This document shows, in pieces, positions 42,531-55,452 of a stretch of DNA of 56,222 bases. Location of the stretch: positions 1-56,222 of the forward strand of contig DATMVF010000105.1 in the NCBI GenBank assembly GCA_035563475.1, read 5' to 3'. How positions within the stretch are numbered: position 1 is the first letter of the stretch; each line of letters opens with the position of its first letter. The notes beneath the pieces were generated by a model that saw only the letters and a list, made by a program, of their open reading frames with translations, ran no database searches and had not been told where the DNA came from. Position numbers and translations under genes: made by a program. Source of the stretch: Rubrobacter sp. (lineage in GTDB: Bacteria; Actinomycetota; Rubrobacteria; Rubrobacterales; Rubrobacteraceae).

Positions 42531-42865
42531 CCGCCAACCTCTCTATGTACTTGGGAACGTTCACCAGTCCCGACCGGCGTTTCGGACCACGCAAGTGTCG
42601 GGGAAGATCTCGGGAACGGCACATATACTACCGTATCTCGGCTCTCGGACCAGGGCCAGAGCAGCAGCGTCCTACGGAATTTAAGGCCCGCCAGGCTCAC
42701 CGCCATCGGCGGAGATACTTTGCCTACCATTAAGGAAAGTTTACTAACTACTCTACCGCTTTGTGAAAAGTGCTGTTAAAATCTCGCGCATGTTTCGTTC
42801 GGCGAAGCGGCAGCGACGCGGACCGTGTACAGCTTTTGCGCAGGTGGGAAGAACGGAGAGGGCAC

Positions 42866-43654
42866 ATGGGCAAAAGATCTGATCGACGTAAGTTCAGGAG
42901 GCGACGCAGGTGGGCCGCGTTCTTAGTGCTTTTGTCGCTTGCCCTCATGGTGTTTGGTGTAACGTTACTGACGGGCTCCCCTGATAAGCAACCGGTTGCC
43001 ACTGATGGGATAGAGAGAGCCGCCGTGGAGAGGGCGGCATCTGTGCAGGTGGCCGGGGCCCCCGAGGCTGCAAGCGAACAGAAGCGGGAAGACGCACAGG
43101 TCCTGGCCTCAGAAGAGGAGGACAAGAAGACCACGGCCGAGAAGAACGAGCCCGCTCAGAAGCCAGAGCCGAAGAAGCGGTCTACGATACCGACGCCGCC
43201 CACGAATGACCTGTGGATGTCCATCCCGGCGCTCGGGCTCTACGACAACTACGTGACCAACTCCGCGGCCGAGTCCGCGATGGATTATGGGGCCATAAAG
43301 TTGCCCCATTCGGGCTTCCCCTGGCAGGACAACGCGAACACCTACATTGCGGCTCACAGGCTAGGGTGGCCCGGTACGGCTAGCCACCATCAGTTCTACA
43401 ATCTGCCGCTTCTGGCCAAGGGGGATGTGATCTACCTCGGCGACGTCAACGGGACTACCTACACTTACGAGGTTACGGAGTTCAAAGAGATAACGCCGGA
43501 TGAAACATGGGTAACGACTCCCAAGCCGGGAAGGGATATGGTCTCGTTGCAGACGTGCATAGAGACCTTCGGTGACTACTGGACGATGGGCCCGAACTGG
43601 TACGTGCGCTACATCGTGCAGGCCGACAGGGTCTCCGTGGACGTCGCGGAGTAA
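42866..43654 (+). CDS. sortase (class D/E-like)
   Basis: N-terminal TM; YIAAHR (His), SLQTC (Cys) and VRYIVQA (Arg). Confidence 0.85.
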   Translation: MGKRSDRRKFRRRRRWAAFLVLLSLALMVFGVTLLTGSPDKQPVATDGIERAAVERAASVQVAGAPEAASEQKREDAQVLASEEEDKKTTAEKNEPAQKPEPKKRSTIPTPPTNDLWMSIPALGLYDNYVTNSAAESAMDYGAIKLPHSGFPWQDNANTYIAAHRLGWPGTASHHQFYNLPLLAKGDVIYLGDVNGTTYTYEVTEFKEITPDETWVTTPKPGRDMVSLQTCIETFGDYWTMGPNWYVRYIVQADRVSVDVAE

Positions 43655-45014: not shown

Positions 45015-45692
45015 TTAGGCCCGGTGTCTGACCAGGATGGAACGCGCTAGTGGCGCGCCGAGGGCGTGGGTGACCCCGTCCTCGTCCTCTGCGGTGACGA
45101 CGCCGTCCAGCGCTCGGACTTCCCTCACCCGGAGCGCGCGCCCCGGCACGAGCCCAAGACCCCGCAGGTAGATGAGCACGGCAGGGTCCCTGTTCTCTAC
45201 CCGCGAGACGACGAAACGCCCGCCGACCTCCGTCCCGCTGAGGGGCCGCGAATCCTCGGGCGGCAGCGCCCCGTCGGACGCGGGGATGGGCGCGCCATGG
45301 GGATCCCGCTCCGGATGGCCCAGAAGCTCGGCCAGACGCTCCGTGAACTCGTCGGAGACGGCGTGCTCCAGCCGCTCGGCCTCCTCGTGTACGTCCTCCC
45401 ACGAGTACCCCAAATGCTCGAGCAGGAACGTCTCGATCAGACGGTGCCGCCGCACCAGCCGCAAAGCCTCCGCGCGCCCCCGCCTCGTGAGGGAAGCCCC
45501 GCGGTAAGGCTCGTAAAGGGCTAGTCCCATCCCCTGTAACCTCGCGAACATGTTGGTTACCGAAGCGGATGAGACGGAGAGCCTGTCAGCAACGCCCTTG
45601 GTCGACGCCGCTCCCGAACCCGCAATCTCCCATACGGCCTTGAGGTAGTCCCCGACCGAGGCGGATGGCTGAGTGACCACTGTGTTTCCCAT
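45015..45692 (-). CDS. DtxR/IdeR/MntR-family metal-dependent repressor with a FeoA-like C-terminal domain
   Basis: DYLKAV, HRLIETFL, HEEAERLEH and DPHGAPIP motifs. Confidence 0.93.
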   Translation of the reverse strand: MGNTVVTQPSASVGDYLKAVWEIAGSGAASTKGVADRLSVSSASVTNMFARLQGMGLALYEPYRGASLTRRGRAEALRLVRRHRLIETFLLEHLGYSWEDVHEEAERLEHAVSDEFTERLAELLGHPERDPHGAPIPASDGALPPEDSRPLSGTEVGGRFVVSRVENRDPAVLIYLRGLGLVPGRALRVREVRALDGVVTAEDEDGVTHALGAPLARSILVRHRA

Positions 45693-45742
45693 CTCCGATC
45701 ACAATATAGGTGATTCGAACAATTTTTTCAAGCAAAAGTACT

Positions 45743-45785
45743 TTGACATGTAACCTCGATTTGTCGTAATATTAGGCAGGGCTAA
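45743..45785 (+). promoter_or_regulatory. MCO-ZIP promoter with an overlapping DtxR-family operator
   Basis: TTGACA (45743)-18 nt-TAATAT (45767), followed directly by TTAGGCAGGGCTAA (45772-45785), which resembles TTAGG-N4-CCTAA. Confidence 0.7.
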
Positions 45786-45834
45786 AACTAACTCGGGGTA
45801 CGCAGTCCCGTAAGGGCGCAGCACACGGAACAGG

Positions 45835-46887
45835 ATGGCGCGCATGGATAGATCGGAATTGGGGGTTTCACGCAGGGATTTCCTGAGGGCCGCGGGCGTA
45901 GCCGGGGCTCTGGGGGTTTCGGGTAGCCTGTTGGGGGCCCGCGCGGCCCTCGGGCACGACGGAGAAAAGCATGGGGCGGACCATAAGGCTGGCCACGGGG
46001 CTGCTGACTCCGGCGGCATGGCTGCGCACGGGGGGAATGGGACGGTTGGGGATGTGGACCTCTCCAGGTTCGACCCTTCGAAGTTCTTGAGGGAGTTCTA
46101 CTGGGGTGAGGAGCGGACCGAGGGCGGCAGGACGGTTCGGGAGTACGAGCTGAGTGCGGAGGCGGTGGAAGTAGAGGTGGCGCCGGGGGTGATGTACCCG
46201 GCGTGGGCCTACAACGGGCAGGTACCCGGGCCAACGTTGCGCGCCAGGGAGGGTGACTTGTTGCGGGTGGTGTTCAGAAACAGGGACGCGCACCCGCACA
46301 CGATACACTTCCACGGCTTCCACCCGGCGGGCATGGACGGGGTGTTCGAGCTTGTCGCGCCGGGCCAGGAGTTCGTCTACGAGTTCGAAGCCGAGCCGTT
46401 CGGGTGTCACCTCTACCATTGCCACGTGATGCCCCTCAAGAAGCACATCGAGAAGGGGCTCTACGGAGCTTTCGTCATAGACCCGAGGGAGGGGCGTGAG
46501 GAGGCCGACGAGTTGGTGATGGTCATGAACGGCTTCGACACCAACTTCGACGGCGCGAACGAGGTCTACGCCGTGAACACCGTTGCCTTCCACCACCAGC
46601 GCCATCCCGTGGAGCTGAAACTAGGCCAGCTGGTGAGGATCTACGTGGTCAACGTGCTGGAGTTCGACTTCGTCAACAGCTTCCACACGCACGCCAACTT
46701 CTTTGACTACTATCCGACGGGGACCAGGCTCGAGCCCTCCGAGTTCACGGACACCAAGATGTTCGCCCAGGGGGAGCGCGGGATCATGGAGTTCAGCTAC
46801 GACTTCCCCGGGCTCTTCATGTTCCACGCCCACGTCAGCGAGTTCGCCGAGCTCGGTTGGATGGGCCTGTTCGACGTGAAGGAGTAG
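45835..46887 (+). CDS. Tat-exported two-domain multicopper oxidase (type C)
   Basis: SRRDFLR Tat signal; His-rich linker; domain 1 has HTIHFHG and HCHVMPLKKHIEKGL (T1 Cu, Leu axial position); domain 2 has FHTH and FHAH with no T1 Cys. Confidence 0.9.
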   Translation: MARMDRSELGVSRRDFLRAAGVAGALGVSGSLLGARAALGHDGEKHGADHKAGHGAADSGGMAAHGGNGTVGDVDLSRFDPSKFLREFYWGEERTEGGRTVREYELSAEAVEVEVAPGVMYPAWAYNGQVPGPTLRAREGDLLRVVFRNRDAHPHTIHFHGFHPAGMDGVFELVAPGQEFVYEFEAEPFGCHLYHCHVMPLKKHIEKGLYGAFVIDPREGREEADELVMVMNGFDTNFDGANEVYAVNTVAFHHQRHPVELKLGQLVRIYVVNVLEFDFVNSFHTHANFFDYYPTGTRLEPSEFTDTKMFAQGERGIMEFSYDFPGLFMFHAHVSEFAELGWMGLFDVKE

Positions 46888-46890
46888 GGG

Positions 46891-48066
46891 ATGGGACGAG
46901 AGCGTGGACCGGTCTGGGTGCTCCTGGGGCTCGTGCCGCTGCTGGGGTTGGGCGTGCTGCTGGCCGCCATCGTGTTGAACGGGGCGGGGATAGACCGCGA
47001 AGACCGTCCTCCCGTGGAGGACCTCACCATCGATCGGGTGTCTTTGCCCACACCGGACGAGATCGTGGTGAGCGTGACCAATGGCGGTCCCGAGCCCGTT
47101 ACCGTGAGCCAGGTGACGGTCAATGAGGCGCTCTGGGATTTCACGGTTGAGCCGGACGCCAGGATCTCACCGCTTGGTTCGGCGGAGATCACCCTGCCTT
47201 ACTCCTGGATCGAGGGCGAGGCATACGGGATAACCCTCATCACGGACACAGGGACCACCTTCTCCGCCGAGGTGCCTGCGGCGGTGATCACACCGACGTT
47301 CACGGCGGAGACGTTCTGGCGCTACGCGCTGATCGGGACCTACGTCGGCGTGATACCGGTGGCGCTCGGGCTGCTCTGGTACCCCTTCCTGAGGCGCCTC
47401 GGCTCCGCGGGGATAGGGGCTATACTTGCCCTCACGCTGGGGCTGCTGGTCTGGCTGGTCGTGGACACCTTGCTGGAAGCGGTGGAGGTAGCCGGGCGGT
47501 TGCCCGGGGTCTTCTCCGGCGTCCCGCTGGTGCTGGTGGTGGCACTGCTCGCCCTGCTCGGGCTGTTGGGTGCCGAGCGTTTGTTCAGGAGGCGTGGGCA
47601 GACGAGCCGGCTCTCGACCTCTTACCGGATCGCTTTGGGGATAGGACTGCACAACCTGGGGGAGGGGTTGGCCATCGGCGCGGCGTTCGCCCTCGGGGAG
47701 GCGGCACTCGGGACGTTCCTCGTGGTCGGGTTCACGTTGCACAACATCACAGAAGGCGTAGGCATCGCGGCGCCCATCCTCGAAGAGAGGCCAAGCCTCG
47801 CGCACTTCGCGGGCCTGGCGCTTCTCGGCGGTGGGCCTGCCGTCCTGGGGACCTGGATCGGTGGCTTCGCCTACTCCAACCTCGCCTCGGCCGTGTTGCT
47901 CGCCGTCGGGGCCGGCGCCATACTACAGGTGATCTACGAGGTTGGCCGGCTTCTCCTGAAGGATTCGGCCCGGTCGAAAACCCCTGCCCTCTCCGTCCCC
48001 AACCTGGGCGGGTTCACCGCCGGTGTGGCCATAATGTACGTCACGGCATTGCTGGTGAGCGTTTAG
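46891..48066 (+). CDS. ZIP-family metal transporter with an N-terminal extracytoplasmic beta domain
   Basis: GLHNLGEGLAIG and TLHNITEGVG metal sites; ~100-aa soluble beta-rich domain after the first TM. Confidence 0.88.
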   Translation: MGRERGPVWVLLGLVPLLGLGVLLAAIVLNGAGIDREDRPPVEDLTIDRVSLPTPDEIVVSVTNGGPEPVTVSQVTVNEALWDFTVEPDARISPLGSAEITLPYSWIEGEAYGITLITDTGTTFSAEVPAAVITPTFTAETFWRYALIGTYVGVIPVALGLLWYPFLRRLGSAGIGAILALTLGLLVWLVVDTLLEAVEVAGRLPGVFSGVPLVLVVALLALLGLLGAERLFRRRGQTSRLSTSYRIALGIGLHNLGEGLAIGAAFALGEAALGTFLVVGFTLHNITEGVGIAAPILEERPSLAHFAGLALLGGGPAVLGTWIGGFAYSNLASAVLLAVGAGAILQVIYEVGRLLLKDSARSKTPALSVPNLGGFTAGVAIMYVTALLVSV

Positions 48067-54669: not shown

Positions 54670-55452
54670 ATGCCCAGGATGGACGTTATGGACGCGGTGG
54701 TGAAGTTGATGGAGGACGAGGGCGTCGAGGTCGCCTTCGGGGTGCCTGGCGCTGCGATCCTGCCACTCTACCAGGCCCTGGGTAAGTCCGGGAAGATACG
54801 TCACTATTCGGTGCGCCACGAAGAGGGCGGGACGCAAGCCGCCGACGGCTACACCCGCGTCACGGGCAAGGTAGGGATCAACATAGGGACCAGTGGTCCC
54901 GCCGGGACCAACATGATCACCGGCCTCTACACCTGCATGGCCGACTCGATACCACAGATCTGCATCACCGGCCAGGCCCCCACGAGCGTGCTACACAAGG
55001 AAGCGTTCCAGGCCGTGGACATCGTAGAGATCGCCAAGCCTGTGACCAAGTGGGCGGTGCAGGTCAAAGAGCCCGGGCAGCTCGTCTGGACCTTCCGGGA
55101 GGCTTTCCGCATCGCCCAGGAGGGCCGCCGCGGCCCGGTCCTGATAGACCTCCCGCTCGACGTACAGAAATCGGGCCTCGAGGTGGACTTCGACCCGGAG
55201 CGCGGCGGTCCCCTGAGGCACATCGCCAAGCCAGAGCCCAGACCAGGGGCGATCCGGCGTGCCATCGAGATGAAGCCTCAGCGGGCCTTCTTGGAGATGA
55301 ACGAGTTCTTCGACGGTGACGAGATCATCGTCACGGCGATAGGTCTGTACCAGATCTTCTCGGGCCAGTTTCAGAAAACCTACAAGCCGCGCCATTACCT
55401 CTGCTGCGGCCAGGCCGGCCGGATCGTCGGTGGTGTGCCCGAGAGAGACTAG
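54670..55452 (+). pseudogene. gcl: glyoxylate carboligase, internally deleted and truncated
   Basis: The N-terminal domain is intact (FGVPGAAI, TSGPAGT, HKEAFQAVDI, GPVLIDLP). It then jumps from ...AIEM straight to KPQR...TAIGLYQI...CGQAG and ends in unrelated sequence. The central FAD domain and the GDG ThDP motif are missing. Confidence 0.85.

Follow-up and report, generated by a model that had tools for sequence, protein, structure and literature searches.

The contig DATMVF010000105.1 of a Rubrobacter sp. (assembly GCA_035563475.1), of which the whole stretch of 56,222 nucleotides was analysed (hereafter the window), carries a three-gene cassette in which a DtxR-family repressor gene is divergent from the genes for an exported multicopper oxidase (MCO) and a ZIP-family transporter (Table 1). 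On balance it seems that the cassette is under MntR-type control and that the MCO-ZIP pair is probably an Mn(II) uptake unit, with the oxidase as its dedicated surface partner. Genes for a class II aldolase and an HxlR-type regulator flank the cassette and are each transcribed towards it, and the closest named relatives are Rubrobacteraceae.

An earlier sequence-only reading had proposed a divergent DtxR-family repressor, an operator-like sequence directly after the -10, an oxidase exported by the twin-arginine translocation (Tat) pathway and, 3 nt downstream, a ZIP with an extra extracytoplasmic domain, and each of these was recovered. Three Pfam domains of the repressor (Fe_dep_repress, Fe_dep_repr_C and FeoA) exceed their cut-offs, with a GTG four codons later as an alternative start. 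The putative operator TTAGGCAGGGCTAA (45772-45785) shares a single base with the -10 TAATAT (45767-45772) of the MCO-ZIP promoter-like site, of which the -35 TTGACA occupies 45743-45748 (18-nt spacer); around 45703-45772, two promoter-like sites are observed versus 0.4 in shuffles. Tat export of the MCO is predicted from TIGR01409 (over its cut-off; Pfam TAT_signal scores slightly below) and the SRRDFL motif. The ZIP gene indeed starts 3 nt past the MCO stop, with AAGGAG within the end of the MCO gene, and its extra domain appears in the predicted model as a beta-sandwich (residues 45-128) with a predicted location outside the cell.

Table 1 Features of the repressor-MCO-ZIP cassette in the window
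Feature	Position	Strand	Details
DtxR-family repressor with FeoA/SH3 domain	45015..45692	-	225 aa; Pfam domains, MntR-type ligands
Promoter-like site for the repressor gene, sigma-70-type, TTGAAA-17-TATATT	45703..45731	-	Motif scan
Promoter-like site for MCO-ZIP, sigma-70-type, TTGACA-18-TAATAT	45743..45772	+	Motif scan
Putative operator palindrome	45769..45788		Core TTAG-N6-CTAA at 45772-45785; matrix 18.7 bits
Type C two-domain MCO, Tat signal	45835..46887	+	350 aa; SRRDFL
ZIP-family transporter with immunoglobulin (Ig)-like domain	46891..48066	+	391 aa; PF02535, predicted model

Regulator, operator and metal

The metal ligands of the repressor are of the MntR type (D15, H83, E87, H102, E106, E109 and H110). 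MntR-type repressors carry Asp and Glu at the positions of Met10 and Cys102 of DtxR, and D15 and E106 agree with this rule, aligning with SloR, ScaR, 5ZR4 and 8PVT, which are also the best PDB matches (1e-31 to 1e-47), ahead of IdeR and DtxR. Among 46 neighbouring repressors, position 15 is Asp in 43 and Asn in 2, position 106 is Glu in 27 and Asp in 17, and the Met and Cys of DtxR/IdeR occur at neither position. The repressor lies below the NCBIfam MntR equivalog cut-off (best NF047407, 191 vs 350) and scores 106 against the DtxR model (cut-off 290).

A de novo motif search upstream of the pair loci returned TTAG-N6-CTAA, which is present as an exact match in 59 of 79 upstream regions outside the Bacillota versus 0.3 expected from shuffles. 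This count is partly circular, and the matrix was therefore retrained on 66 sites from other families, with the own family excluded. Upon scanning the 3.13-Mb genome with this matrix, two sites score above 10 bits, both in the gap that separates a DtxR-family gene from a ZIP gene. One is the operator described above; the other, with 23.3 bits the strongest in the genome, belongs to G000:C274:9228-10917 (L130), where a second DtxR-family gene (N-terminal part 80% identical) lies divergently next to the gene of a plain ZupT-like ZIP, and which, judged by its sequence, is another cassette in this regulon. Exact matching gave three sites (0.98 expected), the third of which (C270:3726) scores below 10 bits, has no metal gene downstream and is taken as a chance match.

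A link to manganese is suggested by the company that box and repressor keep in the family. Of the 28 mntH matches, 19 loci were examined, and in 18 of these the same repressor type is divergent from mntH, while the matrix reaches at least 12 bits upstream of mntH likewise in 18 of 19 (versus 1 of 1900 shuffles). A further 16 family repressor loci face a TroA/ZnuA-family ATP-binding cassette (ABC) gene with the box (6), a plain ZIP with the box (4), or have no box (6). Since box and repressor type are common to mntH and MCO-ZIP, the pair fills the regulatory slot of MntH. In the Bacillota, the exact box is absent from all 14 pair copies and a different palindrome is present instead, which in 10 of the 14 has at most four mismatches to the B. 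subtilis MntR consensus as given in the supplement of PMC11882963 (0.73 expected; 0/79 in the others), with a single mismatch in one copy. In two alphaproteobacterial copies of the pair, an annotated mntR is encoded divergently next to it. So repressor lineage and box change whereas MntR-type regulators persist, which means that the pair stays under MntR-type control.

In the window's own genome (92% complete), no canonical mntH, TroA/ZnuA, FTR1 (PF03239) or Mn catalase was found, whilst there are two Nramp-like genes, which lack the box, and two separate Fur-family genes.

Several observations weigh against manganese or against the pair as a unit. Iron, too, can act on MntR-type repressors and be carried by MntH. 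For the ABC binding proteins linked to the box, the top-scoring model is that of the zinc protein AztC, followed by MntC, with no score over the cut-off. The pair does not replace mntH, which is found in 8 of 20 family genomes with the pair and 17 of 41 without; mutual exclusion of the two was not found. One archaeal subclade lacks a perfect box, and the existence of ZIP-less relatives of the MCO (8 actinobacterial genomes and about 22 archaeal or viral loci) means that the MCO fold has other uses. No Mn transport, enzyme or expression data on the pair were found in the literature searched. The E. coli-type MntR box (PMC1698941) is present in only 1 of 4 alphaproteobacterial loci. Finally, MCO1 of ammonia-oxidising archaea (AOA) and its ZIP are slightly up under Cu limitation (log2 fold change, log2FC, of 0.81 and 1.33; PMC7785015).

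With these points included, it is very probable that Mn(II) is the signal for the repressor, and likely that Mn(II) is the main cargo of the ZIP. Of the Fe or Mn acquisition put forward by the sequence-only reading, the Mn half is thus strengthened (MntR ligands, the box of mntH and the MntR box in the Bacillota), while the Fe half is not.

The oxidase-ZIP pair and its distribution

All type 1 (T1) copper ligands of the MCO (H155, C196, H204 and L209) lie in domain 1, the first three being present in 83/83 relatives and L209 in 78/83. Domain 2 lacks a T1 site, with N281 and A332 at those positions, and the eight T2/T3 histidines (H158, H160, H195, H197, H284, H286, H331 and H333) are found in 83/83. 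By these residues, the protein (the sole PF07732 match in the genome) belongs to the type C two-domain multicopper oxidases and not to the nitrite reductases; a NirK identity was rejected on a TIGR02376 score of 109 (cut-off 296) and the retained T3 histidines. A twin-arginine motif is present in 105 of 112 MCO loci with enough upstream sequence (duplicates counted). The nearest structures, 3GDC and 7RAB/7RAC (Marinithermus hydrothermalis), are 56-57% identical, reach TM-scores of 0.88-0.94 on the target and have the same copper ligands, so that by analogy to 7RAB and 3GDC the MCO would be a trimer that reduces O2 to water. Unlike the protein described here, these are known as structures, MhMCO also as a laccase-like enzyme, and the literature searched gave neither a physiological role nor a ZIP partner for them. 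Four MCOs of family members (L224:3044-4507, L246:267-1757, L037:3478-4956 and L226:3232-4723, the last apparently frameshifted in this part) carry a hydrophobic, His-containing extension of about 140 aa, without a Pfam match, in frame ahead of an internal twin-arginine motif, which would anchor the MCO in the membrane.

The ZIP was modelled with a pLDDT of 92.5 and a pTM of 0.86 as an N-terminal helix (7-29), the beta-sandwich and eight helices (139-390). It narrowly passes PF02535 (36.1, cut-off 35.1), and BbZIP accounts for the top ten Foldseek matches to its core. The beta-sandwich, which weakly resembles archaeal FlaF/FlaG and pilin heads, is in the predicted model a generic Ig-like fold, and its location outside the cell is predicted because of the established topology of ZIPs. 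A search for this domain in longer proteins scored 0 of 248 candidates, which is weak evidence. With BbZIP and ZupT (GufA-type) the protein shares the eight-helix core and the ligands of the binuclear site (H254/N255/E258 and H284/N285/E288), of which H284 is present in 81 of 83 relatives and the others are invariant. It differs from them in the Ig-like domain inserted before the core and in the motifs HNLGEG and HNITEG, which replace proline-containing ones, i.e. the usual prolines of transmembrane helices 4 and 5 are replaced by G257 and T287 (83/83). It also fails the ZupT equivalog test (38.5 vs cut-off 252). On the outside, the carboxylates E43 and E199 are found in 80/83 and 77/83 relatives, respectively. 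Among the ZIPs collected, a divergent group (P0235, P0237, P0244, P0274 and P0275) retains the Ig-like domain and has Gln at the positions of both transport-site histidines. An internal TAG suspected as a break in the ZIPs of G268 and G275 turned out to be a normal stop, since the frames stay open across residues 1-389 and 3-389.

Co-conservation of MCO and ZIP, on which the sequence-only reading depended, is pronounced. Of 251 genomes from the phylum, 33 encode an Ig-like ZIP, in every case with the MCO gene immediately upstream of it. In other phyla this holds for 77 of 80 ZIP loci (the best 80 of at least 596), the remaining three ending at a contig edge too soon to tell. Conversely, the MCO is matched in 42 of the 251 genomes, of which 9 lack the ZIP: eight have a more distant MCO (40-46% identity), which in most of them follows a cupredoxin/beta-helix protein of about 650 aa, and the ninth (G187) has a frameshifted MCO and no such ZIP. 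The phyla with the pair include the Chloroflexota, Bacillota, Gemmatimonadota, Acidobacteriota and Deinococcota. Out of 146 plasmid records, 12 regions were examined and all contain the pair (cyanobacteria, alphaproteobacteria and haloarchaea included), 8 of them with a DtxR-family gene beside it. The hosts include culturable Rhodococcus, Cytobacillus, Shinella and Haloferax. As the surveyed genomes are related, these counts do not represent independent events. Three of the 33 pair genomes in the phylum are unpublished (G001, G048 and G120) and enter the operator and repressor tallies, while the unpublished G260, G279, G282 and G289 enter the family counts; the conclusions are independent of all unpublished genomes.

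In the family, the pair has the character of an accessory element, being present in 20 of 61 genomes (near-complete ones: 11 of 38). The two genes are neighbours in 18 of these 20, while in the other 2 they lie on separate contigs or are truncated by a contig end. The suggested connection to tolerance of radiation and desiccation is therefore weak, the pair being absent from most near-complete family genomes and common in unrelated phyla.

The neighbourhoods of other copies vary. In seven of the twelve plasmid regions (L031-L034, L135, L136 and L138), the pair lies in a heavy-metal island with P-type ATPases and ArsR/SmtB regulators, a setting that would fit Mn resupply under Cd/Zn stress. Genes for DoxX/DoxD, Rieske and plastocyanin-like proteins adjoin the pair in L031, L032, L034, L135 and L139, hinting at an electron-transfer link; none lies in this window. 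In L246 (G259:C194:681-4371), MCO, ZIP and mntH follow in succession on one strand. A ZIP-less sister group of Tat MCOs (L117-L120 and L122-L125) is mostly preceded directly by a protein of about 570-700 aa, three of which were scanned and contain cupredoxin and right-handed beta-helix (NosD-like) domains; by sequence, this looks like a separate conserved module.

Archaeal copies and MCO1

The sequence-only reading had pointed to similar MCO-ZIP neighbourhoods in AOA, and Nitrososphaeraceae loci of the same architecture were indeed found. In a metagenome scan for the archaeal-type MCO (best 80 of at least 587 matches), two low-GC groups emerged, one ZIP-less and one ZIP-linked. The ZIP-linked loci, two of which are tied to the Nitrososphaeraceae, encode an MCO that is 52-55% identical to the present one, followed by a ZIP with the same extra domain and a short MntR; the one archaeal regulator that was scanned passes the MntR cut-off NF003025. 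Among the loci scored, the exact box lies upstream of 6 out of 12 ZIP-linked ones, where 0.2 would be expected, and of 0 out of 13 ZIP-less ones, counts that leave out 7 of 19 and 8 of 21 loci, respectively, without a called start. In a quick tree of 117 rows, for which a pattern filter had dropped many loci, the Nitrososphaeraceae ZIP-linked MCOs fall among the bacterial ones.

The two groups also differ in four carboxylates, D235, D239, E336 and E339, all of which are present in 21/21 archaeal ZIP-linked MCOs. In the 22 ZIP-less archaeal MCOs they occur 12, 6, 15 and 0 times, respectively, and in the 8 ZIP-less actinobacterial ones 6, 4, 0 and 3 times, a pattern that ties the set to partnership with a ZIP. 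A viral contig (L134:3767-4993) encodes a distant ZIP-less archaeal-type MCO that lacks all four and whose relatives carry archaeal names; the virus-borne 'MCO1' genes of the literature may belong to the ZIP-less rather than the ZIP-linked group.

The ZIP-linked MCO of the Nitrososphaeraceae may be the 'MCO1' of the literature. With reference to previous comparative studies, Reyes et al. 2020 (PMC7785015) describe AOA MCO1 with an adjacent ZIP permease (NVIE_000600/NVIE_000590), draw the analogy to Fet3 and propose a role in copper supply, which they call unvalidated. PMC11849493 and PMC12448741 hold MCO1 to be exclusive to AOA or likely for copper, its role being elusive. The archaeal and Rubrobacter systems share a two-domain MCO with a Leu axial T1 ligand directly followed by a ZIP, the extra domain of this ZIP, an MntR-type gene and often the same operator. 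They differ in that archaeal MCOs start with a hydrophobic anchor instead of a Tat signal, and in that the archaeal regulator is a short, B. subtilis-like MntR located downstream. Furthermore, the pair is AOA-specific and copper-related according to these papers, whereas here it is widespread and under Mn-type regulation. The pair itself is hence already noted in archaea; what is new is its breadth, the MntR-type control through changing boxes and the ZIP-linked acidic residues, and this Rubrobacter copy is one of very many.

Proposed function and alternatives

Oxidase-permease iron uptake is established in Fet3/Ftr1 and EfeUOB, which the cassette resembles in that a metal-sensing repressor governs the genes for both an exported oxidase and a permease. 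It differs in that the permease is a ZIP and not FTR1, the oxidase has two domains, and control is of MntR rather than iron type. With the MntR, SloR, ScaR and SirR regulons (mntH and TroA-type ABC transporters) it has in common the repressor ligands, the cassette layout and the box, which also precedes mntH and ABC genes; the difference is the cargo, here an oxidase-ZIP pair. No such cargo is listed in the sections consulted of PMC10783522, PMC1698941, PMC10448178 and PMC11882963, and full-text searches that did not extend to subscription journals returned no paper that ties the pair to Mn or describes it in bacteria.

In the proposed mechanism, the MntR-type repressor likely silences the MCO-ZIP operon at Mn sufficiency, while under Mn shortage Mn(II) likely enters through the ZIP, with the exported MCO acting as its dedicated surface partner. 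That the MCO works at the ZIP, held by the Ig-like domain, has about even chances of being correct. Mutual information between the two proteins (84 paired rows, effective number 60; underpowered) reached a top z of 5.6, below the permuted maxima of 6.3-6.9. As to what the MCO does there, its conserved carboxylates would bind divalent ions (capture) and its copper centre would oxidise the readily oxidised competitors Fe(II) and Cu(I), or organic ligands holding Mn (filter), with the outcome that it is Mn(II) that reaches a promiscuous ZIP. Such capture and filtering, resting on chemistry, is put forward tentatively; it is favoured over Mn(III) transport or deposition of Mn oxide because the divalent site of the ZIP is intact and the operon should be on when Mn is scarce. 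The broader notion that an MCO docked on a ZIP via the Ig-like domain drives or filters Mn import as a widespread transport principle is doubtful.

In a redox-coupled import of the Fet3/Ftr1 kind, the MCO would instead make bound Mn(III), which would either pass to the ZIP or build up at the surface to be re-reduced. In P. putida, oxidation of Mn leads to higher cellular Mn (PMC3798386). The near-obligate pairing, the translational coupling, the ZIP-specific acidic residues on the MCO together with E43 and E199 on the outside of the ZIP, the lack of the usual proline in both transport helices, and the DoxD/DoxX, Rieske and plastocyanin genes beside some copies would all fit. However, the ZIP retains the His/Asn/Glu site of divalent-ion carriers, no redox partner gene lies in this window and no ZIP is known to transport a trivalent ion, so this route is considered unlikely.

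Iron uptake, with the MCO as ferroxidase, the ZIP as iron permease and an iron-sensing DtxR, draws on the Fet3/Ftr1 analogy, the apparent lack of FTR1 in this 92%-complete genome and the fact that ZIPs can carry Fe(II). It is nevertheless quite unlikely, as the repressor lacks the Met/Cys ligands of DtxR/IdeR, the box is common to mntH and is replaced by the B. subtilis MntR box in the Bacillota, and two Fur-family genes exist separately.

For copper acquisition, i.e. oxidation of Cu(I) to Cu(II) by the MCO for the ZIP, the chances appear poor. PMC7785015 put it forward for AOA, PMC11849493 and PMC12448741 took it up again, and it would be in line with the mild induction of the AOA pair under Cu limitation and the heavy-metal P-type ATPases near 7 of 12 plasmid copies. 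Yet that induction is small compared to that of MCO4 (log2FC 4.3-7.0, PMC7785015), whose authors leave the idea unvalidated, the adjoining regulators are MntR-type, and a copper enzyme would be a costly cure for copper shortage.

There is only a slight chance that the two proteins are independent but co-regulated, the ZIP importing Mn(II) alone and a laccase-like MCO being needed in the same conditions. The laccase activity of the close homologue MhMCO (as cited in PMC10673308), the ZIP-less MCO clades and the plain ZIP found by itself behind this box, at C274 and in 4 family loci, speak for it; however, the Ig-like ZIP was never seen without the MCO in loci with enough upstream DNA, and G187, with its frameshifted MCO, has no Ig-like ZIP.

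Mn oxidation for deposition or detoxification is least probable by far. The Mn-oxidation module of the sequence-only reading fits poorly in this sense, since a repressor site overlapping the -10, as for importers, would silence the operon at plentiful Mn; moreover, the partner of the MCO is an importer, and the MCO does not match MnxG or McoA in size. The dominance of Rubrobacteraceae with putative Mn oxidases in Mn-rich rock varnish (PMC13439051) and the automatic JGI name 'manganese oxidase' on some relatives are the points in its favour.

The proposed Mn(II) uptake by the MCO-ZIP pair contrasts with the copper supply assumed for AOA MCO1 in PMC11849493 and PMC12448741. A requirement for the oxidase in uptake would add a redox-coupled mode to ZIP transport and give Mn an uptake route beyond MntH, ABC transporters and plain ZIPs. 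Should a docked MCO drive or filter the import, the pair would be without precedent in the literature searched, both as an oxidase-dependent ZIP and as a redox-coupled Mn uptake system, and AOA MCO1 and the type C two-domain MCOs would have their physiological role.

Elsewhere in the window, a gene with a sortase domain (42770-43654) lies upstream of the aldolase gene and is apparently unrelated to the cassette. An open reading frame of 260 aa at 54670-55452 resembles, by eye, a thiamine-diphosphate enzyme of the acetolactate synthase/glyoxylate carboligase type and is seemingly internally deleted or truncated.

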